64,000 nt of DNA from Stegostoma tigrinum. Its lineage: Eukaryota. Position numbers and translations under genes: made by a program. The DNA is taken from positions 136,581,178 through 136,645,177 of the forward strand of contig NC_081355.1 of the NCBI RefSeq assembly GCF_030684315.1, given 5' to 3'. Shown piece by piece: positions 1 through 57,438 of this stretch. Each line of letters begins with the position of its first letter. Positions within the stretch are counted from its first letter, which is position 1. Under the pieces are notes generated by a model. The model saw only the letters and a program-made list of their open reading frames with translations. It did not search any database and was not told where the DNA came from.

Positions 1-3000
1 CCCATAATACTATGCCATCCTCTACTGTGATCTGGTCACTCTGGGTCCAAAAAGTTTTCAGTTCTGATTGTGACAGCCCTTTGGTCTCCCCCATCACCAC
101 CAGCTGGGTTAGTTTTGCCAGGACCGGATCTTTCTGCAATTAAGGTCTGATATTGTCAGTTGTAGCACAAGTGTGTCCAGAAAATTTAAAACCATTATCG
201 TCTCTTCCCATGGTGGTACCACCAGTGGTGTATCTGTCAGTGGGAGGCAGCTCAATGCATCCACATTTGTTACTTGGCCACCTGACAGTGTTCCAATTTG
301 TAATTATATGCATTTAGTATTAGAGCCCACCACTGAATTCAGCAGAAAGCCATGGGTGACACGGCCTTGACCTTTTTATGTAGATCCAGCAGGAGTGTGT
401 GATTTGTTATTCTTACAGATTTACATCCATAAAGATAATGGCAGAACTTGCTAACTTCAAATATGACCGCTAACCTTTCTTCTCTGTGTGGATGTATTCA
501 CACTCTGTATTTGCCAAAGTATTAAATGCGTACAGTGTTGGGTGTTCATCTTCATTAGCCCATGTATGAGCAAATACTACCCCAATGCCATACTGGGAGG
601 TATCACTTGTCAATACCACATCTCACTTGTGATCATAGTGTGGCAACATCTTCGAAGATGACAGCTGTTTCTTCACTTCCACGAAAGCTGTGGCTTGGCT
701 ACACAACCATTTCCAAGGCTAAATCTTTTGTAACTGGTGATGCAAAGGTGCCAGCATGGATGCCAGGTTATGTATAGCTTTCTGTAATAATTCACCAGCC
801 CAAGAAAAGAACTAAGCTCTTGTAGAGACATGGAAGCAGGGGCATCTTTGATCGCCCTCACTTTATGTTTCAATCGGCGTAACCAGTCTTGTCGACTCTG
901 CAGCCCTAGTACGTCAATTGAGGTACAAAAACAAAGTTGCTGGAAAAGCTGAGCAGGTCTGGCAGCATCTGTGAAGGAAAAAACAGAGTTAACGTTTCGG
1001 GTCCAGTGACCCTTCCTCAGAACTGATGGTGGCTGGGAAAACATCAATTTATATGCAGAAAAAAAAGGGAGGGGTGGGGTAGGGAGTAAACGATAGGATA
1101 GAGCCAAAAGAGAGAGAAGGCAGAGGGCTGTGAGGGGGGTTTTGGGGATGAAGAAAGTGTGGGCCAGGGTGTCCCAGAGGGAACGGTCCCTGCAGAAGGT
1201 GGACAAGGGAGGGGAGGGGAATATGTGTCTGGTGGTGGCATCTTGCTGGAGGAAGTGGAAATGGCACCTGATGATCTTCGGATGTGAATGCTGGTAGGGT
1301 GATAGATAAGGTCAAGGGGAACCCTATCGCTATTGTGGGAGAGAAGACAAGGGGTGAGGGCAGAAGTGTGGGAGATGGATTGGGCCTGGTTAAGGGTCTT
1401 GTCGACCACAAAGTTGGTAATCTTCGGTTGAGGAAGAAGGTGGACATTTTGGAGGCTCCTTAATTGAAGCTGGCCTCATCTGAGCATATACGATGGAGGC
1501 AGAGGAACTGAGAGAATGAGATGGAGTCTTTACAGGAAATGGGGTGTGAGGATGTATAGTCCAGGTAGCTGTGGGAGTCAGTGGGTTTGTTGTGGATATT
1601 AGTAGCCAGTCTACCCCCAGAAATGGAAATAGAAAATGTTGAGGAAGGAAAGGAAGGAATCAGAGGTAGACGAAGTGAAAGCGAGAGGAAGGTGGAAATT
1701 GGAGGCGAAATTGACAAAGTTTTCCAATTCCGGACAAGAGAGGAAGCAGCACCAATGATATCATCGATGTATCAGAGAAAGAGTTGTGGGAGCGGGCCGA
1801 AATAGGGCTGGAACAAGGAATGTTCCACATACCCCATGAAAAGACAGACTTAAATAGGGCCACCCCTGATTTACAGCATCCACAGTTCTTTCGTTTTTTA
1901 TTTATGTCACTTGAGGTGCCTTGAACACACATTTTTTCCCTTCTGGCCCTTCTCCCTTCTGGAAGAAATATCTAAGGACCATGTCCAAGTTCTCTTAGAG
2001 CTCTTCATTGGTCTTCTCTGTTATTAGCATATCAGAGGTAAATGATGACCTCAGATAGACATTATAAAATGTTCTTCATTGTCCACTGAAAAATTGCAAT
2101 GGATGATGATACCCCAAATGGCAGTCTCATATATTGGTACAAACCTTTATGGGTATTAATTGTAGCATACTTCTGGGAATCCTTATCTAACTTCAATTAC
2201 AAGTACATATGGCTCATGTCCAGCTTGTGAAGGACAGCATCCCATGCCAGCTTTGCACATAAATCCTCTATGTGAGGGATTGGGTCTTTATTCAGCTGTG
2301 AGAAGTGATTTACCGCTTGTTTAAAATACCTAAAAAGGCAAACCGACCCATTAGGCTTCACAATTAGTACGACCAGTGCTGCCCATTCCACAAGTGCACA
2401 GGTTTAATGATTCCGCTGCTTTCCAGCCTTCGGATTTCACTTCTTTTTGCCCAGGCCTTGCAGAATCATGGAATTGCTTTTGGTCAGTATGCAAGGTGGC
2501 CTTGGCTCCTTTGACAGTCCCTAGACCTTCCTGAAACACTCCCATGTATTTAAATTAGAATTTCACACAGGCAACCACTTTCTAATTAAAAATGTTTCAG
2601 CCAGTATAGGTGAATCTTTCTAATTCAATTTTGCCCCATGAAGCTTGGCCTTGAGCTTTTACTACTATCAGTGGTAACTGAACCAGATGTTTCTCACAAG
2701 AGACTGGAACCAGAGTTGTACCCTTAATCTGTAAAACGCCCCTGGTATAAGTTCTCAGTCTATCCGAGGTCTTGTGCAAACTTAAGGGTTGGAGTCCAGA
2801 GTGAATTTTGTTAAAGACTCCATCGGTATTCACGAAATGGCCATGACAGTATCGACCTCCATCCGAGTGACCATTTAAAGTTTATTTTGAATGGTTCTGA
2901 TTTGGATGTTGCTAAGCAATTTAACTGTTCCAAAGCAGACGTAGATGGACTTTCCAGGGTGTGAGCTCTCCAGGATACAGGCTTATGAGTTCCCTTACAG

Positions 3001-6620: not shown

Positions 6621-7739
6621 TTGTCATTAAGTTGACCAGCTGAGAGAACAGTGATGATGGTGGTGGAGGCGGAAAGAGACTGGTAAGGCAAACAAGCTAG
6701 ATCCAGCCCTGAGCTCCAGAAATTCCCTCTCAGCATCTCTTAACCTCTCTTATTTTTCTCCTTCGCAACACTTCTTAAAATTCTACTTCTTCGACCAAGC
6801 TTTAGATCATCTACCTTTCCATCTTTATGTGCCAGTGCCATATTTTCTTTTATAACAGCTAGGTGAAGTGCCTTGAGACACTTCATTGCCATAAAGGCAC
6901 TTTATAAATACAAGTTATGTTGACTACCAATTTATCAACCATTACTGTATAAATCTGGGTTGCATGGCTTACTATCATATAATCTAGCTCATTTATTTAT
7001 TAAGCCAAACCTAAAATAATACAGTTCACAACAGCAAAAGTGACCAAGCTTTTGCTGTAGTGAAACATGTTTGTCCATGCTACAATTAGTGAGATGTGCA
7101 GAAAAGTTCCGTCATTAAATTGAGCCATTTTACTTCCAAAGGCATTGAACTCTTATTTCCTATGGATGAGAAGTGTTTCATCAAAGCCATCTAGACTCAA
7201 ACTGTTACATTGTTCACTCTCCATGGATGCTGCCTGACTCGCTGTGGTCTCCAGCATTTGATGTTTCAATACAGATTCCAGCATCTGCAGTAATTTGCTT
7301 CTAAACTCTTATACTGTTTGCACTTCAGAATCTCAAGCTAAATTTTTTTCATTTTCTCATCATATTGCTCCTTTTGTCATTTGCCCAGATCTATCGTACA
7401 GTAACTTAGTGAGCAATCTCTATGCATTTGGGGAACACTCCCTTCACAGCTTGCTGGACCTGCTGAATATTTCCAGAATTTTCTGTTTATATTTCCAGCA
7501 GCTGCAATGATTTGCTTTTGTTTTATATTATTCAGTTTCTGAGCTAAAGAACCATTAAACACAGTCACATATTCTTCTTTGCTTTAAATATTTATTCACT
7601 TTGCCTTGAAAGAGCACTCCTTGCATCAAATAATTTTATGTTCCTGAAACATCACTGCAAAACTAAATTTCACCTCACCCTTTACTCCCGACTTGGTAAT
7701 AATTCCAAAATCAATTACCCTCATGGGCTGCTTAACAGT

Positions 7740-7950
7740 AGGAACTGCCGATACTGGAGAATCTGAGATAACAAGGTGCAGAGCTGGATGAACACAGGCC
7801 AAGCAGAATGAGGGGAGCAGGAAAGCTGATGTTTCGGGTCTAGGCCCTTCTTCAGAAGATTTTTCTGGGTTTAGACCCGAAACGGCAGCTTTCCTGCTCC
7901 TCTGATACTGCTTGGCCTGTTATGTCTATCCAGCTCTACACCTTGTAATT
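7740..7950. mobile_element. Miniature palindromic Penelope-derived element (two inverted 3' termini)
   Basis: ACAAGGTGCAGAGCTGGATG...GTTTCGGGTCTAGGCCC is inverted against GGGTTTAGACCCGAAAC...ATCCAGCTCTACACCTTGT and is homologous to the ends of 26534-27960. Confidence 0.8.
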
Positions 7951-8814
7951 TCATAAGTAAACATAATTCTTTACCATCCCCAGAACCCCATTAAATCTCC
8001 TTTTAGCTTTTTTTTGCCTCAGTGTACACTTTCATCTATATTTTCATCTAAAATGTAATGTCATTCTCATCTATATTCAACTGAATGTTCTCTTTGTTAA
8101 TTTTCTCCTGAAACTTTTTACAATGTTCCTCACCTCCAATCTCCAATTTTATACCATCGATAAATTTCAAGGTGGTATTAACAGTACCCAAATAACACAT
8201 GAATACCATGAACAAAAGTGCTCCACCAACTAAATGATATCATTTCCAAACCATCACCACTTGTCACAGCATTAATTTATCCTAATTTCAAACTATCTTA
8301 CATTTAAATAGAGTCTTTAAGACAGAAACTTGTCCCAATATGTTTAATAGAGACTAAGGAAAACAGATGCTGAATCAAAGATCAAAATTAGGAGAAGTGA
8401 ACTAGAACTTAGTCAAAGAACCTTTAAAGTAAGTGAAATGCTTAAAAAAAGGAATCAGCGCAATGTGCAAAGGAGGGAGAGTTGAATGTCTGAAGGAAGA
8501 TAGGGAAGGTGAGACGATGGAGGAATTTAGAATGAAGAATGAGAATTTTAGAATGAAAGCATTTATGGTGACTGGCATCCTACCTGGTTTGCCAATTAAT
8601 GTGTGGTGAGAGAGCATTTGATGCAAGTTAGGATCCAGATATCGGGAGTTTGGATGAATTAACATTTATGGAAAATGTAGTCTGGGAAGCCATTAGTGCA
8701 ACAATTTTCCTATCATGCTGCTACATTTCCTCTTGCATCAAACATTGTATTTTGTAGCAAACCTTTTATGAAGCACTTCATTGAATGCCTTCTGCAAATC
8801 TGTATCCATATATT

Positions 8815-20340: not shown

Positions 20341-20352
20341 AAGTAATTTGAG

Positions 20353-21640
20353 TATCTGGATGTGAGTTTGCTCGCTGAGCTGGACGGTTCGTTTTCAGAT
20401 GTTTCGTCACCATTCTAGATAACATCATCAGTGAGTCTCCGGTGAAGTGCTGATGTTATGTCCCGCTTTCTGTTTATCTGTTTAGGTTTCCTTGGGTTGG
20501 TGATGTCATTTCCTGTGTTGGTGATGTCATTTCCTGTTCTTTTTCTCAGAGGATGGTAGATGGGCTCCAAATCAATGTGTTTGTTGATGGGGTTCCAGTT
20601 GGAATGCCATGCTTCTAGGAATTCTCATGTGTGTCTCTGTTTGGCTTGTCCTAGGATGGATGTGTTGCCCCAATCAAAGTGGTGACCTTCCTCACCTGTA
20701 TGTAAGGATACGAGTGATAGTGGGTCATGTCGTTTTGTGGCTAATTGATGTTCATGTATCCTGGTGGCTAGCTTTCTGCCAGTTTGTCCAATGTAGTGTT
20801 TGTCACAGTTCTTGCATGGTATTTTGTAGATGACGTTCGTTTTGTTTGTTGTCTGTATAGGGTCTTTTAAGTTCATTAGCTGCTGTTTTAGTGTGTTGGT
20901 GGGATTGTGGGCTACCCTGATGCCAAGAGGTCCGAGTAGTCTGGCAGTCATTTCGGAAATGTCTTTGATGTAGGGGAGAGTGGTTGTGGTTTCTGAGCCC
21001 GTTTTGTCTGTTTGTTTGGGTTTGTTGCTGAGGAATCGGCGGACTGTGTTCATAGGGTACCCATTCTTTTTGAATACGCTGTATAGGTGATGCTCCTCTG
21101 CTCTTTGTAGTTCCTCTGTGCTGCAGTGTGTGGTGGCTCGTTGGAATAATGTTCTAATGCAGCTTCGTTTGTGGGTGTTGGGATGGTTGCTCCTGTAGTT
21201 CAGTATTTGGTCCGTATGTGTTGTTTTCCTGTAGACGCTGGTTTGAAGTTCCCCATTGGCTGTTCGCTCTACTGTGACATCTAGGAATAGCAGTTTGTTG
21301 TTGTTTTCCTCCTCTTTTGTGAATGTTATGCCAGTAAAGGGTATTATTGATGGTCTTGAAGGTTTCCTCTAATTTGTTTTGTTTAGTGATGACAAAGGTG
21401 TCATCCACATAGCGGACCCAAAGTTTGGGTTGGATGATTGGCAGAGCTGTTTGTTCGAGTCTCTGCATTACTGCCCCTGCTAAGAACCCTGATATCGGAG
21501 ATCCCATGGGTGTACCGTTGGTTTGTCTGTAGGTTTTGTTATTGAAAGTGAAGTGGGTGGTGAGGCATAGGTCCACTAGCTTGATGATGTTGTCCTTGCT
21601 GATGAGGTTGGTGGTGTCTGGTGTATGTGTCTTTTGAGTA
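20353..21640 (-). mobile_element. 5'-truncated Penelope-like element (RT + GIY-YIG, second family, Poseidon-like)
   Basis: RT motifs 'QTNGTPMGSPISG' and 'WVRYVDDTF' (ORF 21154-21666). GIY-YIG 'NVIYKIPCKNCDKHYIGQTGRKLATRIHEH' (ORF 20625-21053). Frameshifted. Confidence 0.92.
20395..20434 (-). ncRNA. Minimal hammerhead ribozyme motif at the PLE 3' end
   Basis: Minus strand: TCA-CTGATGA-T-GTTATC tagaat GGTGAC-GAAA-CA-TC-TGA. Stem I is TCA/TGA and stem II has 6 bp including G-U pairs. Confidence 0.7.
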
Positions 21641-22789
21641 TGGATGAAGTAATAAATTATAAGCAAATGTTTATTTTAGAATTTTTATTAAATATTGGTG
21701 TAAACTGTTTATTTAAGCTTAACCAAAATTCATCACAGCAGAAAGTAAGGTATACATACAAAAGGCCTTTAGTCGTTTAATTTTATTGATGGAAGGGTAC
21801 TTACTGGGAATTGAAATGCATGAAAGAAAATATATGTGAAACAATATTTTGACCTCTTTGCGGCTTTTAAAAGTCTAACAAAGAAAAATGCATGTATCAA
21901 AATATCTGTTATTGAAGAAAGTACGAATCTTTAAAGTTAAACAATTCTTATTTTGGCTCTGGAGATAGGAGGAACTGCTGATGCTGGAGAATCTGAGATA
22001 ACACGGTGTGAAGCTGGATGAACACAGCTGGCCAAGCAGCATCAGAGGAGCAGGAAAGTTGACATTTCAGTTCGAGACCCTTCTTCACAGCTTCACACCA
22101 TGTTATCTCATTTTGGCTCTGTTTTTTCATGTATCAGTTGCCCCAGTTTTAATACTTATAAACAATATTAATAATTTTGATGAAGGGACTGTTATTACTA
22201 TATCCAAATCTGCTGACAGTACAACAATTAAATGGAAGGATGCAAGCAATCAACATTAAGGATAGTATGAATGAGTGGGCAAATTTTTAATTTTTAAATT
22301 AATTTTTATTCATGGGATGAGAAGAGTCATGAGATAAGCCAGAATTTATCACCCTCCCTGAATGTCTTGGAGAATGTGGTGGTGAGCTGCATTCTCGAAT
22401 CCCCATTGTCCTTGGGGCAAACGTATTTCCACAATGTGTTAGGAAGGAAGTTCCAGTCCTATGACCCAACAACGGTTATGTAGTTCCAAGTCAGAGTAGT
22501 GTGAGACTTGATGCGGAATTTGCAGGTAGACATGTTCCCATGCATTGATAGCCCTTGTCCTTTCAGGTACTGCAATGTACCCTGTAGGTACCAGCATTCC
22601 ATCTAATTTTCTTAGTAGTTGAGTGGGGCTCTGCTGCCCCTATGCAGCAGTGACCTCTTGACCTAGAAGTCAATGCCTCAATTGACATGTTGATGTTTGG
22701 AACACTGAAACAGGTTAGAGGGAATGTTGGATCTTACACATTATGGTCACTGAACAGACTGAATATTTAAAGCGATGGTTGGGATCAAA

Positions 22790-24910: not shown

Positions 24911-26592
24911 CTGTATCATTACAGAGCAAAAAAAGGCCATTTGGCCTATCATGTCTGTGTCTGGCTCTGTGTAAGAACAATCTGCCTAGTGCCAACTGTA
25001 AAAAAATTCTGCTTATATTCAACAAAAATCAGCATTTAATCATGTCTACATTTCATCTTTGCAACTACTGAACTGTTTTAACATTGAATGCTCAGAACCT
25101 TGGGGTCTAAGGGCTTAAAGGTTGATATACTTTTCTTTAATATGGACCTTTGAGTTCACAGAGACCTCAAGGCAACTAGCTGTATCCATTTTAAGTTATC
25201 CCTATCTATACAATAGATTTGGATAATTATAAAGGTAAAGCATTCATCTGACCTGGTTTACAATCATTAGAAATATTTTTTCAAAACTCTGTAAAACTCT
25301 TGGATTCAATTGTGTTAATGAAATTACATGGACTATACGTAATGTTTACATTGATAAATATTGATAAAGAGAATAGCTTCAGATTGATCAAGTTGTTTAT
25401 GCAAAACAGACTAGATAAGGAGAGAGCATGATAAGGATTTTTGTAACATTCCAAAGCAAAGATATTTGACCTATTTTTTGCAGACAAGGACTATATATAA
25501 CAATAGTAGATAGTGATGACAAAATTGCTTTGTAGGGTAATGGGCTGTGAACTTTGGTCACATGGATAGTGTCCTTAGATGAATCACAGGGTGTTCCATG
25601 TTCGTGGTTTACTTGGGAAGTAAAGCCTGTCAAAAACGGTTAACCATTACCTTTATTAAGTGTTTTTAATACATAATACATCTTCCAAAATTGTAACAAA
25701 TTAATCTATCCCTTTTTTTTTTCTTCAAGTCCAAGACCTATGGAATTCACATTTGATTCTCACACACACTGCTGATTCAGAGGCAGAAACAAGGGTTAAA
25801 GTTTACTGGTGCTTCTGTGACTGAAAGTCTGTTCCCAGTGAGGGTCCATAGAGCTCAAGAACCAAATCCTTTGTTTGCAATGATTTACACTTCAATGTAA
25901 GGGGAATGATGGGAAGTTTGCAAGTGGTACCAAAATTGGCAGTATGCTTAATAGTGAAGGGTACAGCTGTAAACTAAGGATAATATTCTAGCTGAAATAT
26001 AGATATAAGAGCTGGGAGATAGGGACAAGATAGATAAAGCAGTATTTACACTGCAGCTAGAGTATTGCATGCTCAAAGCACAATCGGATTTATGTGGGTC
26101 TACTACAGAAGTTACAGAGGAGATTAACAAGGATTCTGTCTAGACAGGAGAACTTCAGTTACGAGAATGAGACAGGTTGGGTTAGGGTTATTTTGTTTTG
26201 AACAGAGAAGGCTGGGGGGATACCTAACCATGACAAAATGATTAAGGAATAGAAAGGCCCTTCCACTGATTAAGTAGTGCATAAACAGGAGTATAGCTTT
26301 AGGTTGTACTGGAGGATTAGAGGGGATTCTAGGAGAAATACTGTCACTTACAGAGTGTTTGGAATCTGGAACTCACTACCTGAAAGAATGGTATTGACAG
26401 AAGCTTAAACTATGTTTAAAAAGTACTTGGATATGCATTGAGGAGACATAACTTACAAGGTTACAGAAGAGGTGGACATTTATATTAGACCGCATGGCAA
26501 GTGTCAGCCGAAGCAAGCATGACACGTCAAAGGTAATAAAATGTGAGACTGGATGAACACAGCAGGCCAAGCAGCATCTCAGGAGCACAAAA

Positions 26593-26625
26593 GCTGACGT
26601 TTCGGGCCTAGACCCTTCATCAGAG
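26593..26625 (-). ncRNA. Minimal hammerhead ribozyme motif (left arm)
   Basis: Reverse complement of CT-CTGATGA-A-GGGT ctag GCCC-GAAA-CG-TC-AG. Confidence 0.6.
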
Positions 26626-27832
26626 AGGGGGATGGGGGGAGGGAACTGGAATAAATAGGGAGAGAGGGGGAGGCGGACCGAAGATGGAGAGTAAAGAAGA
26701 TAGGTGGAGAAGGTGTGGGTGGGGAGGTAGGGAGGGGATAGGTCAGTCCAGGGAAGACGGACAGGTCAAGGAGGTGGGATGAGGTTAGTAGGTAGCTGGG
26801 GGTGCGGCTTGGGGTGGGAGGAAGGGATGGGTGAGAGGAAGAACCGGTTAGGGAGGCAGAGACAGGTTGGACTGGTTTTGGGATGCAGTGGGTGGGGGGG
26901 AAGAGCTGGGCTGGTTGTGTGGTGCAGTGGGGGGAGGGGATGAACTGGGCTGGTTTAGGGATGCAGTGGGGGAAGGGGAGATTTTGAAACTGGTGAAGTC
27001 CACATTGATACCATATGGCTGCAGGGTTCCCAGGCGGAATATGAGTTGCTGTTCCTGCAACCTTCGGGTGGCATCATTGTGGCAGTGCAGGAGGCCCATG
27101 ATGGACATGTCATCAAGAGAATGGGAGGGGGAGTGGAAATGGTTTGCGACTGGGAGGTGCAGTTGTTTGTTGCGAACTGAGCGGAGGTGTTCTGCAAAGC
27201 GGTCCCCAAGCCTCCGCTTGGTCTACATTGGGGAAACCAAGCGGAGGCTTGGGGACCGCTTTGCAGAACACCTCCGCTCAGTTCGCAACAAACAACTGCA
27301 CCTCCCAGTCGCAAACCATTTCCACTCCCCCTCCCATTCTCTTGATGACATGTCCATCATGGGCCTCCTGCACTGCCACAATGATGCCACCCGAAGGTTG
27401 CAGGAACAGCAACTCATATTCCACCTGGGAACCCTGCAGCCATATGGTATCAATGTGGACTTCACCAGTTTCAAAATCTCCCCTTCCCCCACTGCATCCC
27501 TAAACCAGCCCAGTTCATCCCCTCCCCCCACTGCACCACATAACCAGCCCAGCTCTTCCCCCCCACCCACTGCATCCCAAAACCAGTCCAACCTGTCTCT
27601 GCCTCCCTAACCGGTTCTTCCTCTCACCCATCCCTTCCTCCCACCCCAAGCCGCACCCCCAGCTACCTACTAACCTCATCCCACCTCCTTGACCTGTCCG
27701 TCTTCCCTGGACTGACCTATCCCCTCCCTACCTCCCCACCCACACCTTCTCCACCTATCTTCTTTACTCTCCATCTTCGGTCCGCCTCCCCCTCTCTCCC
27801 TATTTATTCCAGTTCCCTCCCCCCATCCCCCT

Positions 27833-27864
27833 CTCTGATGAAGGGTCTAGGCCCGAAACGTCAG
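27833..27864 (+). ncRNA. Minimal hammerhead ribozyme motif (right arm)
   Basis: CT-CTGATGA-A-GGGT ctag GCCC-GAAA-CG-TC-AG: the conserved core boxes, a 4-bp stem II, palindromic ACGT in place of stem III, and only a short stem I. Confidence 0.6.
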
Positions 27865-28019
27865 CTTTTGTGCTCCTGAGATGCTGCTTGGCCTGCTGTG
27901 TTCATCCAGCCTCACATTTTATTATCTTGGAATCTCCAGCATCTGCAGTTCCCATTATCTATGACACGTCAAAGGACCTTCTTTCATGCTGTGAATTTCT
28001 TTGATATATTCAGAAGGTC

Positions 28020-29100: not shown

Positions 29101-29129
29101 TATAAAGATGTTGTTTTAACAGACTACAG

Positions 29130-29720
29130 AATGCCATGGTACAAAGGGACTTGTGTGTCTTGTACATGAATCAGGAAGTAGTCAGGAAGACAAATCAAAT
29201 ATTGGTCTTTCTTGCAAGGTGGAATGGAGTATAAATGAAGGAACGTCTTGCTACAAATGTTCAGAACATTAATAAGACCACAACTAGAGTCTTGCCTACA
29301 GTTTTGGTCTAATTGTTCACGTTGGGATAGAATTGCATTGGAAACCATTCATTTTACCAGGTTGATTCCTGGGTTGAAAAGTTTGTCTTCTGAAAAATGC
29401 TTGAACAGGTGGGACCTACACTCAGTGAAGTTTACAATTGTGGGAGGTGATCTTATTGAAGCATATACTTCTGAGGACACAGAATTTATTGTGAGGATCT
29501 CAGAATTTGCTATTGGCATTTTGAAGTTAGTTGGGAGTTCTCCACTCCAGACAGTGGTATAGACTAAGTCACTGAATACATTCAAACCAACCAATTCCTT
29601 AATTTTAGTGGAGGACAGACTAAGTGGGCTGAAGGAAAAGATCATTATCAGCCATGATCTTAATAGATGAAAGGGCAGAATTTGAGGGGACCATACTCTG
29701 AAATCTGTCTTTTTGATTCC
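29130..29720 (+). mobile_element. Old CR1 3' fragment
   Basis: 'LIRPQLESCLQFWS...FTRLIPGLKSLS'. Confidence 0.75.
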
Positions 29721-30891: not shown

Positions 30892-30992
30892 ATGCTGCGG
30901 ATGGCTCTTGTTGCTTATGTGTGGCAGCTCGGCAGCTTGTTGCGTCGAGCTGCTCAGCGCCAACATTCTGTAGCTGTACCCTGGTTTTCTGG
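30892..30992 (+). CDS. IDI1: Isopentenyl-diphosphate delta-isomerase, exon 1 (N-terminal extension)
   Basis: MLRMALVAYVWQLGSLLRRAAQRQHSVAVPWFS-GG|gtaagt. Splices in frame (phase 2) to 32718. Confidence 0.7.
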
Positions 30993-32685: not shown

Positions 32686-32943
<258 letters not shown>

Positions 32944-42641: not shown

Positions 42642-43115
42642 CTAAGCAGAACAAAAATAATTAAAGTAGAAAAAAATGCAGAGACAAGGATGACATTGTG
42701 TTAACAATTTATATTTATACAGCATATTAAATACAAAACATCCTATGGTATTTCACAAGAATATTAAGGCTAAAAAAAATTCCTAGATTTATTAAGAGAT
42801 TAAAGGTGATGACCAAAAGCTTAGTTAAAGAAGTCAAAGATATTTAGAGAAGGAATTCCAGAGCTTAGGGGCAAGGCAACTAAAGGCATGACTACTAACA
42901 GTGGAGTAATTATAATCAGTTCTGCTCGAGACACCAGCATTGGATGATCATAGATTGCTTGGAGGGCTGGGGTATAGTGAATATTACAAATATAGGAAGG
43001 GGTTAGGCCATGGAAGAATCTGAAAACAAATTCTAAGTATTTTAAAAACGTAAGTGTTGCTGGTCAACATCTACTCCAATTCAAGCATGTACAAAAGCAA
43101 TGGAGAAACAAGACC

Positions 43116-45712
43116 ATAACGAGGTGTAGAGCTGGATGAACACAGCAGGTCAAGCAGCATCAGAAGTGCAGGAAGTCTGATGTTTCGGGCCTAGACCCTT
43201 CATCAGAAATGGAAGGGAAGGAGGTTCTGAAATAAATAGGGAGAGAGGGGGAGGCGGATTGAAGATAGACAAAGGAGACGATAGGTGGAGAGGAGACAGA
43301 CAGGTCAAAGAAGCGGTGATGGAGCCATTCAAGGTGAGTGTAAGTGGGGAGTTAGGGAGGAGATAGGTCAATCCAAGGAAGACGGACAGGTCAAGGGGGC
43401 AGGATGAGGTTAGTCGGTTGGAGTTGGGGATGGGGCTTGAAGTGGGAGGAGTAGATAGGTGGGAGGAAGGACAGGTTAGGGAGGCAAGGACAAGCTGGGC
43501 TGGTGTTGGGAAGCGGTAGGTGGACAGGAGATTTTGAAGCTTGTGAAGACCACATTGATACCATTGGGCTACAGGGTTCCCATGTGGCAAATGAGTTGCT
43601 GGTCCTGCAACCTTCAGGTGGCATCGTTGTGGCACTGCAGGAGGACCAGGATGGACATGTCTAAGAAATGGGAGGGCAAGTTGAAATGGTTCGCGACTGG
43701 GAGTTGCAGTTGTTTAGTGCGAACTGAGCGTAGGTGTTCTGCAAATCAGTCCACAAGCCTCCACTTGGTTTCCCCAATGTAGAGGAGGCCACAACAGGAA
43801 CAGTGGATGCAGTATTCCACATTAGCAGAAGTGCAAGTGAATCTCTGCTTGATGTGGAAAGTCTTCTTGGTGCCTGGGATGGGGATGAGGGGGGAGGTGT
43901 AGGGGCGGATGTAGCACTTCTGTGGTTGCAGCGAAAAGTGCCGGGTGTGGTGGGGCTGCAGGGGAGTGTGGGGCAGACAAGGGAGTCACAGAGAGAGTGG
44001 TCTCTCCGGAAAGCAGATAAGGGTGGGGAAAGAAAAATGTCTTTGGTGGTGGGGTTGGATTGCAGATGGCAGAAGAGTCGGAGGAGTGGTACGTGAGGAC
44101 AAGGTGGGATTCTGTTTTGGTTGTTGCAGGGAGTGGGTGTGAGGAATGAGTTGCGGGGAATGCGGGAGACACGGTCGAGGGTGCTCTCGACCACGGAGGG
44201 GGGTTGTTACAGTCCTTGAAAAACAAGGACATCTGAGATATACGGGAGTGGAATGCCTCATCCAGGGAGCAGATGCGGTGGAGGTGAAGGAATTGGGAAT
44301 GGGGATGGCATTTTTACAGGAGGGTGGTTGGGAGGTGGTGTATTCTAGGTAGCTGTGGGAGTCAGTGGGCCGGAAATGGGTGGGGTAGTTGCCAGAGACA
44401 TCCATTTCAAGCCCACTGACTCCCACAGCTACCTAGAATATACTTCCTCCCACCCACCCTCCTGCAAAAATACCATCCCCTGTTCCCAATTCCTTCACCT
44501 CCACTGCATCTGCTTCCAGGATGAGGCATTCCACTCAAATACATCTCAGATATCATCCTCGTTTTTCAAGGACCGCAACATCCCCCGAATCAGTGGTCAA
44601 GAATGCCCGCAACTCATCCCTCACACGCCCTCCCCACAATAACAACCAAAAGAGAATCTCCCTCGTCCTCACGTACCACCCCACCAATATCAGGATCCAA
44701 TGCATCATCCTCCGAGACTTCCGCCATCTGCAATCCGACCCCACAACCAAAGGCATTTTTCTCTCCGCACCCATATCTGCTTTCCAGAAGGACCCGGTCT
44801 CTGTGACTCCCTTGTCTGCTGCACACTCCCCTCCAGCCACACCACACCTGGCACTTTTCCCTGCAACTGCAGGAAGTGCTACACCCACCCCTACACATTC
44901 TCCCACATCCCCATCCCAGGGCCCAAGACGACTTTCCACATCAAGCAGATGTTCACCTGCACATCTGCTAATGTGGTATACTGCATCCGCTGTTCCCGTT
45001 GTGGCCTCCTCTACATTGGGGAAACCAAGCAGGGGCTTGGGGACTGCTTTGCAGAACACCTTTGCTCGGTTTGCACTAAACAACTGCAACTCCCAGTCGC
45101 GAACCATTTCAACTCCCCCTCCTACTCCTCAGACGATTTGTCCATCCTGGGCCTCCTGCAGTACCACAACGACGTCACCCGAAGGTTGCAGGAACAGTAA
45201 CTCATATTCCACTTGGAAACCCTGCAGCCCAATGGTATCAATATGGACTTCACAAGCTTCAAAATCTCCCCTCCCACTACCGCATCCCAAAACCAGCCCA
45301 GCTCTTCCCTGCCTCACTAACTTGTCCTTTCTCCCACCTATCGCCTCCTCCCACCCCAAGCCACACCGCCATCTCCGACTGACTAACCTCATCCTGTCCC
45401 CTTGACCTGTCCATCCTCCCTGGGCTGCCCATCTCCTCTCTACCTCTCCACCTATACTCACCTTTACTGGCTCCATCCCCACTTCTTCGACATGTCTGTC
45501 TCCTCTCCACCTATCTTCTCCTTTATCCATCTTCTATCCACCTATCTCCCTATTTACTTCAGAATCCCCATCCCCTCCCCCATTTCTGATGAAGGGCCTA
45601 GGCTCAAAATGTCAGCCCTCCTGCAGCTCTGATGCTGCTTGGCTTGCTGTGTTCATCATGCTCTACATCTTGTTATCTCAGATTCTCCGGCATCTGCAGT
45701 TGCTACTATCTC
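43116..45712. mobile_element. Older fold-back Penelope-like (Neptune-like) insertion with ~1.27-kb inverted arms
   Basis: Arms ~43116-44382 and ~44399-45676 both start at 'F(K/R)PTDSHSYLEYT'. They encode 'FPCNCRKCYT...NVVYCIRCSRCGLLYIGETK'. The tail runs to 45712. The TSD TGGA(G/T)AAACAA is at 43101-43111 and 45713-45723. Confidence 0.9.
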
Positions 45713-46810
45713 TGGATAAACAAAAGAATTAGGAATATGAGAAGACTCATCACCTTCAGCCTGCTCAACTAATCAGGTCGACCTGATTGTAGCTGTAATT
45801 CTGCATTTCCACCTATTCCCGATATCCTTTCATGCGCTTACTTAACAAGAATCTACTTTGTATTAAAAAATTTCATGGATTTTGCTTCCATGACCTTTTC
45901 AGGTGTAGTGTTTCCAAGGGCTCATGACCCTCAGAGAAAATAATTAGCCTCAATGTTTTAAATCGGCAATTCTTGACTTTTAAACAGTAGTTCTAAATTC
46001 TCCCATAAGAAGAAAGATCATTTCCACATCCAACCTGTCAAGATCCCTTAGAATCTTTTATCTTTTAATCAGGCCACCTCTTCAAAACACAATAAACAGA
46101 AGATCATTCTGCCCCTTTAATCCGTTCTGCCATTCAACATCACCACTGACCACCATTTATACTCCCATTCTCTCCCTATATTCATCCAGAAACCTATCAA
46201 TTTATTTCCTAATAATATTCAATGCTTGTTCTCCACATTCTTCTGTGATACAAAATTCCACTCCTCACTGAAGTAATTTTTCCTCATCTCATTACTGCCT
46301 ACTGGGCATCCAGAGACAACAGTCCTTGGTTCGAGGACACCCTTCCTCCACCACCAAACACACCCCCCATCCCAAAATCCCTATCCCTTCTATTCCATAG
46401 CTCTATCATTGCTCACAAGCCTGTTGTATAGCACTTGTCACGATACCCTCCATTACTTCCTCAAAGACTCAAGAAAATGAGTTAAATTTAAGAATATAAG
46501 AAACAAGAGGATTTGGATCTAGCTAACAGACATCAGCTTCCCAAACCTTTGTTTTCCTTCCAAAGACAACAAAAACAAGTGTGCCAGTTTTATACAAGTA
46601 AATCATCTCAAATTTTATCAAGGGATGTTAAAAGCAGAAAGTTCCCAAATGATCAAATTTCTATTAGGGAAATATACGCAAAATTATTGAGTCTGTTTGC
46701 AACGGTCATCAATGTTTTTGTATATGTGGAATTGAGATGAATTACAGCATATTAAAAAAAAATCAAAAATGTATCAATGAAAACAAGTCTAATGTGTATT
46801 AGGAACAAAC

Positions 46811-48022: not shown

Positions 48023-48245
48023 CTGTAAAAACAGAAAAATGCTAGTACGTTTGCTTTCAAATTTCTGGAAGAAGGTTCTGCCTTCTCATCCAATGTATTC
48101 ATCAGCATTAACGCTTACGATAAGCAAAATAATAATTATAATGGTCAAAGAAACATGTAATGCATCTTTGCAAAACAATTCAGAATTCTACTATCCATCA
48201 TAACTGGATTGTTTCCTCAAACATATTCAAGGGCAAAACGTTATG

Positions 48246-48562
48246 GAGGTTGGCTCGCCGAGCTCGTCTGTTGTTCCGTGGATGTTTCGTTACTGTGCTA
48301 GGTAACATCCTCAGTGCAGCCTCTGATCAAGCGTTGACCGCATATACATTCCACTATGAAGGAAACCCATTAAGTGAGGCAATCCATCGCAATGGACCCC
48401 AGAGTTTAAAAACCTGGCAGGAAAACACACCGACGCTTCATCAGAGGCTGCACTGAGGATGTTAACAAGCCCAGTAACAAAACGTCTGCAGAACAACAAA
48501 CCAGCTCAGCTAGCCAACGAACCTCAACACCCACAACCTGAGCTACAGATCTACTCCAAAAC
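48246..48562. mobile_element. Miniature palindromic PLE-derived element with two hammerhead motifs
   Basis: Arms of ~90 bp (48246-48336 and 48432-48526) plus a ~36-nt tail. The termini resemble the 3' end of the PLE at 20353. Confidence 0.75.
48448..48491 (+). ncRNA. Minimal hammerhead ribozyme motif (G12-to-A decayed copy)
   Basis: CTGCA-CTGAGGA-T-GTTAAC aagccca GTAAC-AAAA-CG-TC-TGCAG, with a perfect 5-bp stem I. The mirror copy at 48276-48319(-) keeps GAAA and a perfect GTTAC/GTAAC stem II. Confidence 0.7.
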
Positions 48563-48994
48563 CTTAGAAACTTACGGGCGCAACATGCTCAAACTGGCAA
48601 AGAAATGGGAAAATTATGTTGATTATCTCCATTGATTATTAAGTGGTACATATTTAAAATTCAAAACTACGTGGAATTTATTTCATGTTGGCATGCTCAC
48701 TTGGAAAGATTGCAAGTATGACAAGAGGAGGGAACACTCGTGGGTTTTTACCCACATGTGGATCATGGCTATCAGTACAAAGCGATTGCGGATCCTAATC
48801 CAGGTAAGAAGTTTGGAGCAACAATTCCACTTGCCCTGTAAACTTAGAAGACCACAAGAATTACCTGAGGTGGGAGAAGTGAAGGTGATCACCAATATGC
48901 TGACACACTGGAATAGACCATAAACCTCAAAATTAAGTTTAAGTTATTGAACAAGAACCTATTCTTGAAAACAGAACACACAAAATGTACCAAC

Positions 48995-49539: not shown

Positions 49540-51235
49540 GGAAAGGCAAAGCCAACGTAGCTTTGCTCGTGGAAAATCGTGTCTCATGCAATTAAATGAG
49601 TTTTTGAAGAAGCGGCATAGAAGATTGATGAAAGCAGAGCATGTGACTTCTGTATGGACTTCAAAACATTTGCTAATGTTCTGAATTATTTGGTTGGATA
49701 AAGTGGGATCCAGGGGGAGCTAACCAACTGCATACAAAATTGGCTTGAAGGTAGGAGTCAGAGGGTGGTGCTAGAGGATTGCTCTGCAAGCTGGATGCCT
49801 GTGACCAGCGGTGTGCCACAAGCATCAGTGCAGGGTCCACTGCTTTTTGGCATTTATATAAATAATTTTGATGTGAATATTGGAGGCATGGTTCATAGGT
49901 TTGCAAATGACACCTAAATTGGTGTTGTAGCGGACAGTGAAGATTATCTCAGAATACAATGGGACCTTAATCAATGGGGTAATGGACCAAGAAGAGGTAG
50001 ATGGAGTCTGATTTAGACAATGTGAGGAGTTGCATTTTGGTAAGGCAAACGGGGGGGCAGGACGTGGGCAGTTAATAATGGTCCTGGTGAGTGCTGCCAA
50101 ACAAAGAGACCTAGGGGTGCAGGCGCATAGATCCTCAAAGTCAAGTTGTAGATAAACAGCGTGGTGAAGAAAGCACCACACAACCAGCCCAGCCCTTCCC
50201 CCCCACCCACTGCATCCCAAAACCAGTCCAACCTGTCTCTGCCTCCCTAACCGGTTCTTCCTCTCACCCATCCCTTCCTCCCACCCCAAGCCGCACCCCC
50301 AGCTACCTACTAACCTCATCCCACCTCCTTGACCTGTCCGTCTTCCCTGGACTGACCTATCCCCTCCCTACCTCCCCACCTACACCCTCTCCACCTATCT
50401 TCTTTACTCTCCATCTTCGGTCCGCCTCCCCCTCTCTCCCTATTTATTCCAGTTCCCTCCCCCCATCCCCCTCTCTGATGAAGGGTCCAGGCCCGAAACG
50501 TCAGCTTTTGTGCTCCTGAGATGCTGCTTGGCCTGCTGTGTTCATCCAGCCTCACATTTTATTATCTTGGAATCTCCAGCATCTGCAGTTCCCATTATCT
50601 CTGGTGAAGAAAGCGTTTGGCACGCCTGCCTTCATTAGTCAGAACATTAAGTGTAGGAGTTGGGATGTCAAGTTGCATCTGTATAGGTCATTGGTGGGGC
50701 CAATTTTAGAATACTACGCACAATTCTGGTTATCCTTCTATAGCGAAGATGATGTCAAACTTGAGAGGGTGCAGAAAAGATTTACAAGGATGTTGCTGGG
50801 ACTGGAGGATTGAGTTACAGGGACAGGCTGATTAAGCTGGGACGTTTACTTCCCTGTAGCATTGAAGGCCTTTTCAAAGATTATAAAAATCATGAGGGGC
50901 ATGAATAGGATGAATTGCCAAAGTCTTTTTGCTAGGGTGGGGAGTCCAAAACTAGATGGCATAGATTTAAGTTAAGAAGGTAATGATTTACAAGGGATCT
51001 GAAGGGTAACTTTCTCACATAGACGGTGGTGCTTGTATGGAGTAAGCTGCCAGAACAAGTGGTGGAGGCAGGTACAATTACAACATTTAAGGGTCATCTG
51101 GATGGGTATATGAATATGAATGGTTAGAGGGACATGCACCAACTGCTGGCAAATTGGACCTGGTCGGGTTGGGATACCCGGGTCAGCACGGACAAGTTGG
51201 AGTAGAGGGTCTGTTTCCGTGCTGTGTGACTCTAT
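49540..51235 (+). mobile_element. Degenerate CR1 LINE
   Basis: 'SFARGKSCLMQLNEF' and 'LVGPILEYYAQFW...LERVQKRFTRML'. Confidence 0.85.
50175..50601 (+). mobile_element. Young Penelope-like 3' fragment with hammerhead motif (50473-50504), nested in CR1
   Basis: Nearly identical to 27535-27960. The 13-bp TSD TGGTGAAGAAAGC is at 50162-50174 and 50602-50614. Confidence 0.92.
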
Positions 51236-51950: not shown

Positions 51951-52220
51951 AACTCCAGTCAGCCAGGTACTCCTGTTCAGTGCATCTGGAAAGAATTCTT
52001 ATCTGCATCTCACATTTTAATGAAGAAACCCAACAGCAATATCCAGAGATATCTCCTTTTCAAATATTCAACTATATATATTTAATAAAGCTAGTCAAAT
52101 GTCCACTAAGCCCAATTGTTTTGGAAACATCAAGTTGTCTGACATCAATCCTTACGGGGCCCTCAAAACATGTGATTTGCACCATAAGCACTATAACCTG
52201 CAAAGCCATGGATCAAGTAC

Positions 52221-52838
52221 ACCTCCGCTCAGTTCGCAATAAACAACTGCACCTCCCAGTCGCAAACCATTTCCACTCCCCCTCCCATTCTTTAGATGAC
52301 ATGTCCATCATGAGCCTCCTGCAGTGCCACAATGATGCCACCCGAAGGTTGCAGGAACAGCAACTCATATTCCGCTTGGGAACCCTGCAGCCCAATGGTA
52401 TCAATGTGGACTTCACCAGCTTCAAAATCTCCCCTTCCCCCACCGCATCCCAAAACCAGCCCAGCTCTTCCCCTCCACCCACTGCATCCCAAAACCAGTC
52501 CAACCTGTCTCTGCCTCCCACCTGTTCTTCCTCTCACCCATCCCTTCCTCCCACCCCAAGCCGCACCTCCATCTCCTACCTACTAACCTCATCCCACCTC
52601 CTTGACCTGTCCGTCTTCCCTCGACTGACCTATCCCCTCTCTACCTCCCCACCTATACTCTCCTCTCCACCTATCTTCTTTTCTCTCCATCTTCGGTCTG
52701 CCTCCCCCTCTCTCCCTATTTATTCCAGAACCTTCACCCCATCCCCCTTTCTCATGAAGGGTCTAGGCCCGAAACATCAGCTTTTGTGCTCCTGAGATGC
52801 TGCTGGGCCTGCTGTGTTCATCCAGCCTCACATTTTAT
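52221..52838 (+). mobile_element. Penelope-like 3' fragment (single arm, no tail)
   Basis: 'HLRSVRNKQLHLPVANHF...RRLQEQQLIFRLGTLQPNGIN'. The 10-bp TSD GATCAAGTAC is at 52211-52220 and 52839-52848. Confidence 0.92.
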
Positions 52839-53474
52839 GATCAAGTACTGGAAAGCGGGATTAAGAATGAACGACTAGGTTATTCAATTTGCACAGATCC
52901 CACGCACTTAATGACAGCTTTTAATGATGTAATGTGTTGATGATCATCTTATCATCTAGGTCAGGAGATGGAGGTAGGATCCAGCACAATAGTAGGAGCC
53001 CAACTAGTTAAGACAAACTGCTGTGAAACTCGGATTGAAGTCTGAGTTGGTGGCAAGGTCACTATTGCGTGCGCGCCTTAATACAAAGGGAGACTTCATG
53101 CCCAGACACTCTTCCAGTCTCTAGCCAAGTCATTTGCCAGTATTAAAACAAAAAAATTGGCTTTACTCAGGCTAACAACAAAATTCACGCAGACGATTAA
53201 TTTAGCTTGGTTCAGTCCTTAACCATTGCAACTTCTTGCATCCAGATTACATATTGATCAATCAAAGGTTTCCTCTGCAAAACATGCTTCTGATGATTCA
53301 GAAAATGAAGTCTTCCAATTAAGGAATTAGACTCTGAACATTTAATTAACTCAAAAGGAAAAATTATTATAATATTTAATTTAAGGATAGTTTTTATTAA
53401 GAATCAATGAAACAAGGAATTTGAAAATATTTTTAAAAGCTCATAACCCAGAGTTGGACTTGAATATGTAATCA

Positions 53475-53668: not shown

Positions 53669-53948
53669 TAATCCTTGGAATAGAAGTCCCATTTGCAAAT
53701 AAATGACCTTATCGGCCACATACTCAGTGCTTCCACAGACACGGAAACAATACAAATTCAAGACTATAGCTGATGGCTGAAGCTTATGGACACCCACATG
53801 AAATAACTTATAATAAATAATAATAACAAGGCAGAACAAACTCAATGAGCCACAAATTTTAATCTACTGTAGCTGGAACGGAAAGGCTCCAGGAAGGGTT
53901 GTGCATGTTTTACGCCATCTGACACTTTTCCAATCAGGTGTTAGTAGC

Positions 53949-55602
53949 ATAACACGGTATAGAGCTGGATGAACACAGCAGGCCAAGCAGCATCAGAGGA
54001 GCAGGAAGGCTGATGGTTCGGGCCTAAACCATTCTTCAGAAATGGGGGAGGGAAAGGGGGTTCTGAAATAAATAGGGAGAGAGGGGGAGGTGGATAGAAG
54101 ATGGATGAAGGAGAAGATAGGTGGAGAGGAGACAGACAGGTCAAAAAGGCGGGGATGGAGCCAGTAAAGGTGGGTGTAGATGGGGAGTTAGGAAGGAGAA
54201 AGGTCAGTCCAGGGAGGACGGACAGGTCAAGGGAGCGGGATGAGGTTAGTAGGTAGGAGATGGGGGTGGTGTTTGAGGTGGGAGGTGGGGACGAGCTGGG
54301 CTGGTTTTGGGATGCAGTAGGGGGAGGGGAGATTTTGAAGCTCGTGAAGTCCACATTGATACCATTGGGCTGTAGCATTCCCAAGCAGAATATGGGTTGC
54401 TGTTCCTGCAACCTTCGGGTGACATCATTGTGGCACTGCAGGAGGACCAGGATGGACATGTCATTTGAAGGGAAAGGGGAGTTGAAATACTTCACAACTG
54501 GGAGATGCAGTTGTTTATTGCGAACCAAGCGAGGCTGTTCTGCAAAGTGGTCCCCAAGCCTCCGCTTGATTTCCCCGATGTAGAGGAGGTCACAACAGGA
54601 ACAGCGGATACAGTACACCACATTAGCAGATATGCAGGTGAACACCTCCTTGATGCGGTAAGTCTTCTTGGGGCCTGGGATAGGGGTGAGGGGTATGGTG
54701 TAGGGTTAGGTGTAGCACTTCCTGCCATTGCAGGGAAAAGTGCAGGGTGTGCAACCGCAGGATATTTTCTCTACAACAGCAGGAAGTGCTACAACTGCCC
54801 CAACACCTCCCCCAACACCCCCATCCCAGGCCCCAAGCCTTTCCACATCAAACAGATGTTCACCTGCACATCTGCCAATGTGGTATACTGCATCCGCTGT
54901 TTCCGTTGTGGCCTCCTCTATATCAGGGAAACCAAGCGGAGGTTTGGGGACTGCCTTGCAGAACACCTACACTCGGTTCACACTAAACAACTGCACCTTC
55001 CAGTCATGAACCACTTCAACTCACCCTCCCTTCCTTAGAAAACATGTCCATCCTGGGCCTCCTAGAGTACCACAACGATGCCACCTGAAGGTTGCAGGAA
55101 CAGTAACTCATAATCCCCTTGGGAACCCTGCAGCCCAATGGTATCAATGTGGACTTGACAAGTTTCAAAATCTCCCCACCTCCTACTGCATCCCAAAACC
55201 AGCACAGTTCATCCCCGCCTCCCTAAACTGTCCTTTCTCCCACGTATCCCCTCCCCTCCCACCCCATCTCCTACCTACTGACCTCATCCCGCCCCTTGAC
55301 CTGTGTCCTCCCTGGACTGACCTATCTCCTCCTTAACTCCCCACCTACACTCACCTTTACTGGGTCCATCCCCGCCTCTTTGACCTGTCTGTCTCCTCTC
55401 CACCTATCTTCTCCTTTATCCATCTTCTATCCACCTCCCCCCTCTCTCCCTATTTATTTTAGAACCCCCTTCCCCTCCCCCATTTCTGATGAAGGATTTA
55501 GGCCCGAAACATCAGCCTTCCTGCTCCTCTGATGCTGCTGTTCATCAAGTTTTACACAGTGTTATCTCAGATTCTCCAACATCTGTAGTTCCTACTATCT
55601 CT
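53949..55602. mobile_element. Older fold-back Penelope-like insertion with ~0.8-kb inverted arms
   Basis: GIY-YIG 'NVVYCIRC..C.LLYI.E.KRR' is on both strands (ORFs 53941-54645 - and 54505-55038 +). The centre is at ~54750. The direct repeat AGGTGTTAGT is at 53936-53945 and 55609-55618. Confidence 0.9.
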
Positions 55603-55916
55603 GAAACAAGGTGTTAGTGGTGTTGTAATTACAATGTCATAAATTAGTTATTACAGGTCTACATTGAACAGGGGATGGAAGTTATCTTTCTTGATAATCT
55701 GTTCTTCTTCCTGACTCCCCTTGTTTACAAATTCTCTAATCTTGCTGGGCTCAACATTGAAAATTATCTTTTACATCTGCTCCTAATTAAAACTTTATGT
55801 CTGCCGGTCTAACTAATGATTTATCTAGCAGGGATCACTTTGGAAGAGGGCACAATTTACAGAATTTAATAAGAATAATGTCAGATGATCAAACCATCAA
55901 GTAAAATTTTAACAGT

Positions 55917-57379
55917 GATAATGGGAACTGCAGATGCTGGAGATTCCAAGATAATAAAATGTGAGGCTGGATGAACACAGCAGGCCAAGCAGCATCTCAG
56001 GAGCACAAAAGCTGACGTTTCGGGCCTAGACCCTTCATCAGAGAGGGGGATGGGGGGAGGGAACTGGAATAAATAGGGAGAGAGGGGGAGGCGGACCGAA
56101 GATGGAGAGTAAAGAAGATAGGTGGAGAGGGTATAGGTGGGGAGGTAGGGAGGGGATAGGTCAGTCCAGGGAAGACGGACAGGTCAAGGAGGTGGGATGA
56201 GGTTAGTAGGTAGCTGGGGGTGCGGCTTGGGGTGGGAGGAAGGGATGGGTGAGAGGAAGAACCGGTTAGGGAGGCAGAGACAGGTTGGACTGGTTTTGGG
56301 ATGCAGTGGGTGGGGGGGGAAGAGCTGGGCTGGTTGTGTGGTGCAGTGGGGGGAGGGGATGAACTGGGCTGGTTTAGGGATGCAGTGGGGGAAGGGGAGA
56401 TTTTGAAACTGGTGAAGTCCACATTGATACCATATGGCTGCAGGGTTCCCAGGCGGAATATGAGTTGCTGTTCCTGCAACCTTCGGGTGGCATCATTGTG
56501 GCAGTGCAGGAGGCCCATGATGGACATGTCATCAAGAGAATGGGAGGGGGAGTGGAAATGGTTTGCGACTGGGAGGTGCAGTTGTTTGTTGCGAACTGAG
56601 CGGAGGTGTTCTGCAAAGCGGTCCCCAAGCCTCCGCTTGGTCTACATTGGGGAAACCAAGCGGAGGCTTGGGGACCGCTTTGCAGAACACCTCCGCTCAG
56701 TTCGCAACAAACAACTGCACCTCCCAGTCGCAAACCATTTCCACTCCCCCTCCCATTCTCTTGATGACATGTCCATCATGGGCCTCCTGCACTGCCACAA
56801 TGATGCCACCCGAAGGTTGCAGGAACAGCAACTCATATTCCACCTGGGAACCCTGCAGCCATATGGTATCAATGTGGACTTCACCAGTTTCAAAATCTCC
56901 CCTTCCCCCACTGCATCCCTAAACCAGCCCAGTTCATCCCCTCCCCCCACTGCACCACACAACCAGCCCAGCTCTTCCCCCCCACCCACTGCATCCCAAA
57001 ACCAGTCCAACCTGTCTCTGCCTCCCTAACCGGTTCTTCCTCTCACCCATCCCTTCCTCCCACCCCAAGCCGCACCCCCAGCTACCTACTAACCTCATCC
57101 CACCTCCTTGACCTGTCCGTCTTCCCTGGACTGACCTATCCCCTCCCTACCTCCCCACCCACACCTTCTCCACCTATCTTCTTTACTCTCCATCTTCGGT
57201 CCGCCTCCCCCTCTCTCCCTATTTATTCCAGTTCCCTCCCCCCATCCCCCTCTCTGATGAAGGGTCTAGGCCCGAAACGTCAGCTTTTGTGCTCCTGAGA
57301 TGCTGCTTGGCCTGCTGTGTTCATCCAGCCTCACATTTTATTATCTTGGAATCTCCAGCATCTGCAGTTCCCATTATCT
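55917..57379. mobile_element. Hybrid fold-back Penelope-like element at the duplication junction
   Basis: The right part is a copy of 26.9-27.96 kb. The left end carries the 36-nt tail and variants absent from copy 1, and it lacks the left TSD. Confidence 0.9.
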
Positions 57380-57438
57380 ATGACACGTCAAAGGACCTTC
57401 TTTCATGCTGTGAATTTCTTTGATATATTCAGAAGGTC

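Follow-up and report, generated by a model that had tools for sequence, protein, structure and literature searches.

The hammerhead-like motif at 27833-27864 of the window (the whole analysed stretch, 64,000 nucleotides of Stegostoma tigrinum DNA) is best read, at a probability of roughly four in five, as the slow, probably protein-assisted ribozyme of an active parent Penelope-like element (PLE), of which the copies in the window are relics. The motif would reside in the terminal repeat (pLTR) of endonuclease-bearing PLEs, some 100-125 nt upstream of the start of reverse transcription, and the element RNA would be copied backwards from its tail at each insertion. Nearly every insertion, however truncated, should then carry the motif, which would explain its density; since insertions contain both sides of the cut site, the template RNA would have been uncleaved. 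Selection on the motif would act only in rare active parents, where the ribozyme, probably with the help of a protein, would slowly process or regulate the element RNA; dispersed copies would decay neutrally and be mostly without function. The kind of motif, its features and the idea that it works as a dimer are already published, and the window adds another example.

The motif, its census and its families

Twelve sites had been picked out in the sequence-only reading, and all of them do have a CTGAnGA box and a GAAA-type box, separated by one extra base and a hairpin. The extra base follows A9 at 12/12 sites, as had been claimed, and G10.1-C11.1 is likewise present at 12/12. The descriptor search that had been proposed as a check gives 11 strict matches in the window, where 200 dinucleotide shuffles average 0.08 and never exceed 2. 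The motif is thus real; the palindromic 15.2/16.2 pair is found in six of these 11, against 0.015 expected from the shuffles. (One strict match outside the noted twelve, at 15694, is a chance match within the coding remnant of a CR1-like LINE.) Other details had been drawn too broadly. The ACGT palindrome, attributed to every site, is intact at seven of the 12, the focal site among them; the remaining five (7826, 20395, 43177, 48276 and 55484) read ACAT, its CpG-decay product. The supposedly general GAAAC box reads AAAAC at 48448, where G12 is lost, and stem II stays paired as described except for a mismatch at 55484. Co-variation of stem I had been quoted from pairs that occur only at Poseidon-type sites; stem I is 2 bp long across the focal family, in related organisms too. 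At the Poseidon-type site 48276, stem I is unpaired.

With a 2-bp stem I allowed, the focal site and eight others of the 12 have the CUGANGA and GAAANNUH boxes and a stem II of 3-7 bp; sites 48276, 48448 and 55484 fail this test. The published descriptor for minimal PLE hammerheads (min-HHR), which calls for a stem I of at least 3 bp, accepts three of the 12 (991, 20398 and 43179) and rejects the focal family for its 2-bp stem I. Since the available alignment of the source paper (PMC4209133) itself has 2-bp members, the focal family lies outside the search pattern, not outside the kind. An Rfam scan of the window gave 24 matches at E<=5, none of them to a hammerhead family, as would be expected for motifs that lack stem III; its microRNA-like matches are inverted-repeat junctions scoring below the gathering thresholds. 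Sites 29968 and 30195 and their duplicates, which a loose pattern finds, were set aside as chance or nested insertion, and an apparent 5-bp stem I at 22090 was rejected because its upstream bases belong to the inverted piece of that insertion.

The list of twelve is far from complete: an iterated profile recovers 35 Neptune-type and three Poseidon-type 3'-end arms in the window, most of the profile arms being decayed and seven of the Neptune-type ones lying in a duplicated copy. Local density in the 64-kb window is high, as had been proposed. The twelve occurrences, taken as separate, come down to nine insertion events and one duplicate. Sites 26593 and 27833 are two arms of one insertion, as are 48276 and 48448, and the stretch 26527-34581 recurs at 55945-64000 (8,056 bp, 99.9% identical, offset 29,418), which makes 57252 the duplicate of 27833. 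Of the eight differences between the two stretches, one falls in the PLE element and the other seven in the initial 370 bp. The junction of the duplication falls within a PLE arm: in the second palindrome, a tailed left arm with private alleles changes over to the alleles of the first. Unequal exchange between two same-strand copies, very recent, would fit this, and so would a misjoin in the assembly.

The proposal of two unrelated PLE families is borne out in the form of Neptune-type and Poseidon-type clades. The longest nucleotide match between their 3' regions is at most 7 bases, and their endonucleases share the GIY-YIG core only (40% over 35 aa). The Poseidon-type remnant at 20350-21640 has Pfam matches to RVT_1 (E=2e-8) and GIY-YIG (E=0.005, short of the curated cut-off) and lacks an extra cysteine linker between the two domains; its hammerhead lies ~200 nt past the frame at 20625, and a reading frame opens with an ATG where stem II begins. 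Frames of the focal family have no Pfam match (three of the 21 frames scanned in the window are named at E<0.01), and the Neptune-type endonuclease remnant at 44643-45197 matches GIY-YIG clusters by Atlas features (score 0.96). PLE reading frames in the window are broken, and it takes a comparison of three damaged copies to read the C-x4-C-x2-C linker of the focal family. That linker motif, set against the C-x2-5-C-x2-C that marks the Neptune clade between RT and endonuclease, here stands in place of an RT tree and points to the Neptune clade. The hammerhead at 991-1020 represents a distant relative of the focal family (the 988 type), with a 4-bp stem I, a 5-bp stem II and a GUU cut site.

Insertions and their end points

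The focal site sits in a 1.43-kb head-to-head insertion (26534-27960) flanked by a 15-bp target-site duplication. Its two arms, identical in 689 of 693 alignment columns, both start within the endonuclease reading frame, the right arm being ~36 nt longer than the left. The endonuclease remnant is 75% identical to the longer one at 44643-45197, and the hammerhead follows its stop (at 27610) by ~225 nt, which is the pLTR location. Stem I consists of 27833-34 paired with 27863-64 (2 bp), followed by CUGAUGA (27835-41), the extra A (27842), stem II (27843-46 with 27851-54, 4 bp), GAA (27855-57), ACGU (27858-61) and C17 (27862); the predicted cut falls between 27862 and 27863.

Inverted arms, a one-sided tail and a target-site duplication recur as a layout at 43101-45723, 53936-55620, 21946-22121 and 48234-48566, and at least seven loci in the window have target-site duplications of 10-16 bp. 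The motifs lie downstream of GIY-YIG remnants or head short tail-bearing fragments, inside insertions with such duplications. The 64-kb window holds no full-length PLE. At 30018-30250 (-) a short Neptune-type insertion has entered the hammerhead of an older related copy, its 10-bp duplicated target covering the GAAA box and cut site of the latter; at 44301-44480 the head-to-head junction of an older PLE pair makes a long hairpin with a microRNA-like score below the gathering thresholds.

Features of the focal insertion and of other PLE copies in the window (positions of the 64,000-nt stretch)
Feature	Position	Strand	Remarks
Left target-site duplication	26519..26533	+	15-mer identical to that at 27961
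Inverted, 5'-truncated, tail-less Neptune-type arm	26534..27222	-	hammerhead 26596-26623 (-)
GIY-YIG endonuclease C-terminal remnant	27223..27610	+	stop 27608-27610
Focal minimal hammerhead	27833..27864	+	right arm of insertion
Candidate long-range 8-bp stem (27879-86 with 27937-44)	27879..27944	+	downstream of hammerhead
PLE tail, ~36 nt	27925..27960	+	right arm only
Right target-site duplication	27961..27975	+	15 bp
Young independent copy, focal subfamily	50162..50614	+	13-bp target-site duplication; hammerhead 50475-50502
Older Neptune-type head-to-head insertion	43101..45723	.	RT, linker and endonuclease remnants; hammerheads 43179 (-) and ~45586 (+, decayed); 11-bp target-site duplication, one mismatch
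Older Neptune-type head-to-head insertion	53936..55620	.	hammerheads near 54040 (-, decayed) and 55486 (+); 12-bp target-site duplication, one mismatch
Tail-less Neptune-type copy	52211..52848	+	hammerhead near 52750, G5 changed; 10-bp target-site duplication
Divergent Neptune-related copy	915..1633	-	hammerhead 991-1020
Short inverted pair, junction at 5' edge of hammerhead	7737..7956	.	hammerhead 7828-7855 (-)
Short complete insertion, U4 of hammerhead to tail	21946..22121	-	22-nt inverted piece; 16-bp target-site duplication, one mismatch
Poseidon-type PLE remnant, RT then GIY-YIG	20350..21640	-	hammerhead 20398-20431
Poseidon-type short inverted pair	48234..48566	.	hammerheads 48281 (-) and 48453 (+), each damaged; 10-bp target-site duplication, one mismatch
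Hybrid palindrome at duplication junction	55913..57382	.	independent tailed minus-strand copy (hammerhead 56014-56041) joined to focal-element duplicate (hammerhead 57254-57281)

Contigs of the public run X10 have loose ends behind 27927 (in 883 contigs) and opposite-strand joints that connect 27926-27927 to 27959-27966; both end points, tail-less and tailed, therefore hold family-wide. The 8-bp stem of the table spans the tail-less end point, its 3' strand lying in the tail; it is paired in 87.5% of cells across subfamilies, and covariation over the whole structure shows no excess. The stem may be a candidate for the structure at which RT starts. At the other end there is a lead: insertions often begin at the 5' edge of the ribozyme. 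Judged by eye and outside the duplicate, about 15 Neptune-type arms start at roughly -10 to +20 of C3, ten reach at least 300 nt upstream, and none was seen in between. For nine arms in six insertions, an inverted junction or a target-site duplication pins down the start; in the other arms, upstream sequence that has diverged might go unnoticed. Loose ends before 27834 make up the largest "before" row among those listed for X10 (809 contigs), and also for X7, a signal confounded in that subfamilies diverge upstream of the motif. One would in any case expect short insertions to be the commonest. Head-to-tail joints of 125- and 132-nt hammerhead-to-tail units also occur in X10, in 15 and five contigs; one listed joint runs from the tail end to 27863, immediately past the predicted cut, but it is given no weight as evidence because there are listed joints to 27867, 27871, 27880 and 27882 too. 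Profile matches in the window include no tandem arrays of short arms.

The window has other features of its own. RT-bearing 3' parts of LINEs, which we take to be CR1-like, lie at 28005-29100 (+; RVT_1 E=7.5e-15) and 23396-24314 (-), with a duplicate at 57424-58519, and end in short tandem repeats; an RT-like frame at 673-880 (-), directly beside the PLE copy at 988, has no Pfam match and is presumably LTR-retrotransposon-like. A CpG-rich open frame of ~145 codons at 17747-18182 (-), with a signal-peptide-like start and a cysteine cluster, is possibly a host exon: it has a weak Atlas lead to LRRNT or decorin-like clusters (0.85) and no Pfam match. The CpG-rich stretch at 30511-30996, in a window whose CpG observed/expected ratio is 0.31, may be a promoter region.

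Decay, folding and the competing readings

Comparisons with four public runs are made on contigs, which cannot show RNA ends, and their empty table of molecule ends has no bearing on cleavage; depths in X10 are summed contig depths rather than copy counts. The focal family is very abundant: in one public run, 150,191 contigs have at least 82% likeness to it. Three runs from two other organisms have near-fixed differences in the flanks, e.g. at 27809, 27833, 27869, 27870 and 27879, and none among the rows listed within 27834-27865; between lineages, the motif is apparently under selection. The catalytic bases are all kept across subfamilies that are only ~70-75% identical. Conservation of the core is not unique, the stretch just downstream of the hammerhead being as conserved between subfamilies as the core. 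Among genomic copies the picture is one of decay. The core variants listed among relatives in X10 are the four CpG changes (C11.1, 14.4%; G12, 13.8%; C15.2, 12.2%; G16.2, 18.1%, depth-weighted), and the listed flanking CpG positions stand at 8.6, 10.9 and 15.7% (depth-weighted contigs): core CpGs decay as fast as flanking ones, so that the genomic copies look like relics and are apparently not under selection. Every core base is kept in six of 21 aligned Neptune-type arms, and three of these 21 also keep ACGT (the 21 are drawn from the 35 profile arms, leaving aside seven duplicates, the near-identical arms at 26593 and 56011, and five short or split ones). In the same alignment the hammerhead pairs hold in 88% of cells, against 22-46% when partners are slid; the covariation that had been suggested as a check does not rise above shuffles (410 of 500 reach it).

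Folding predictions do not favour the active form. The focal monomer is predicted to fold into an inactive hairpin, CUGAUG with CGUCAG, at -11.4 kcal/mol, and the active-like ensemble has a predicted probability of ~2.5e-6, against 0.013 for the 988 type; since prediction disfavours the active fold in the focal family, the parent motif may itself not cleave. For two focal copies, the nearest-neighbour model puts the double hammerhead at -5.5 kcal/mol and the inactive duplex at -38.0. Such models omit tertiary contacts and protein, and therefore lower the odds of activity without excluding it. Stem II and loop II (27843-27854) are self-complementary end to end and would form a 12-bp duplex between two copies; the palindromic loop II was considered as a dimer signal and rejected, being confined to the focal family (it is absent in the 988 and Poseidon types) and stabilising the inactive duplex. 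Lengthening of stem I by splicing, as proposed for D. virilis, was likewise dismissed: there is no AG directly upstream of stem I.

How far do these observations bear on what the copies do? In the sequence-only reading the dispersed copies could cleave only when two of them pair; the corresponding model makes them functional ribozymes whose cutting depends on pairing through ACGU, either in cis on a long pre-mRNA or in trans. The palindrome is indeed intact in young copies, schistosome dimers cleaved weakly and the monomer not at all (PMC4209133, available text), and head-to-tail units of 125-132 nt occur in X10. We nevertheless give this reading little chance. Intact same-strand copies are 6.8 to 29 kb apart and the closest pairs are on opposite strands, so that one transcript holds one sense copy; with no intact same-strand pair closer than 6.8 kb, the inactive duplex favoured and a core base or the palindrome lost in most copies, the claim that copies cleave once two pair is unsupported at these loci. 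The 4-bp palindrome duplex is predicted to be worth only -1.7 kcal/mol, the double hammerhead lies far above the dimer minimum at 4/4 modelled sites, and the CpG of ACGT decays freely.

That the focal Neptune-type motif no longer cleaves, and is kept as a signal in RNA or DNA (a protein binding site, for example, or part of an internal promoter), is also improbable in our judgement. It would accommodate a stem I of 2 bp throughout the family and in other organisms, an inactive hairpin predicted at ~8 kcal/mol below the active-like ensemble, and a downstream stem conserved as well as the core. Preservation of all catalytic bases across such divergent subfamilies argues for catalysis, however; published PLE hammerheads of Culex, Drosophila and Oikopleura also have 2-bp stems I (PMC4209133, available text), and the anole motif, which is inactive alone, cleaved with protein (PMC11167929, available text). 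Very improbable, in turn, is the proposition that the short hammerhead-to-tail units are a self-propagating, non-autonomous, retrozyme-like family instead of truncated PLE products. The many arms that begin near the 5' edge of the hammerhead, the tandem units in X10 and the proposed origin of animal retrozymes from pLTRs (10.64898/2026.07.22.740005, as far as available) speak for it, but the short arms come from several subfamilies with varied start points, share the inverted and tailed structure of long copies, and form no tandem array among the profile matches of the window.

Returning to the ribozyme of an active parent PLE, one joint reading of the Neptune-type data, possible but doubtful, would make it a switch, its core locked in the inactive hairpin when the 2-bp stem I slips by two bases, until the element protein or a second copy refolds it; an RNA 5' end or RT stall at the 5' edge of the ribozyme, with internal initiation at the tail, would yield many hammerhead-to-tail insertions of 100-130 nt from uncleaved RNA. 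If true, this would explain the solo minimal hammerheads that flood such genomes, and it would seed retrozyme-like tandems. The young and very abundant family in the window, its stem I short and its ends sharply mapped, suits work on protein-assisted cleavage and on cDNA stops.

Comparison with published elements

Minimal hammerheads of metazoan PLEs were described by Cervera and De la Pena in 2014 (PMC4209133; this and the other papers are cited here for their available portions). The minimal type I form, the palindrome and dimer proposal, the extra base, the 15.2-16.2 pair and the opposite-strand pairs are all there, so that what had been called established in the sequence-only reading is so. 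The window motifs have in common with these min-HHRs the CUGANGA-H core, one extra base, G10.1-C11.1, the absence of loop 3 and the palindromic 15.2-16.2, and also the occurrence of several sequence families per genome, mostly as single truncated copies, with opposite-strand pairs nearby. The focal family differs in its 4-bp stem II and in its 2-bp stem I, below the 3-bp minimum of the descriptor. Three descriptor matches in 64 kb here, compared with ~4,000 in the coelacanth genome and ~9,000 in that of Xenopus, look like a higher density locally; descriptor counts miss the youngest family of the window, and motif counts mostly measure dead insertions. Cartilaginous fish are absent from the searchable part of the supplement of that paper, and a paper devoted to their PLE hammerheads was not found in the open literature, subscription papers lying outside the scope of the search; one chondrichthyan genome is covered by a preprint (10.64898/2026.07.22.740005).

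The animal non-LTR retrozymes of that preprint also have a type I hammerhead in short pLTR-derived units, which the X10 tandems recall, and one of nine Xenopus dimer elements cleaved. The window copies, in contrast, are dispersed PLE insertions rather than tandem arrays, tandem joints being confined to X10 contigs.

The role of PLE hammerheads is posed as an open question in PMC8557442 and PMC11167929. The hammerhead of PAc, the Poseidon of Anolis carolinensis, is the best-studied one among vertebrate PLEs; it was inactive alone and cleaved once the element protein was supplied, insertion in vitro did not require it, and it gave no read ends in RNA-seq (PMC11167929). Sites 20398 and 48453 resemble PAc in two respects: stem II begins with an ATG that opens a frame, and the copies end at two positions 30-40 nt apart; the sequence family is different, and the core ATG of the Neptune type opens only 13 codons. 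With Neptune-clade PLEs the focal family shares an RT remnant, the C-x4-C-x2-C linker as read across its three damaged copies, a C-terminal GIY-YIG, a pLTR hammerhead, inverted arms and a tail, although the window has fragments only. Frangieh et al. (2024, PMC11167929) link the tail to internal initiation of reverse transcription at two sites, and an inverted 5'-truncated copy with a 30-40 bp tail at one end is the PLE layout described by Craig et al. (PMC8557442), which the focal insertion matches exactly.
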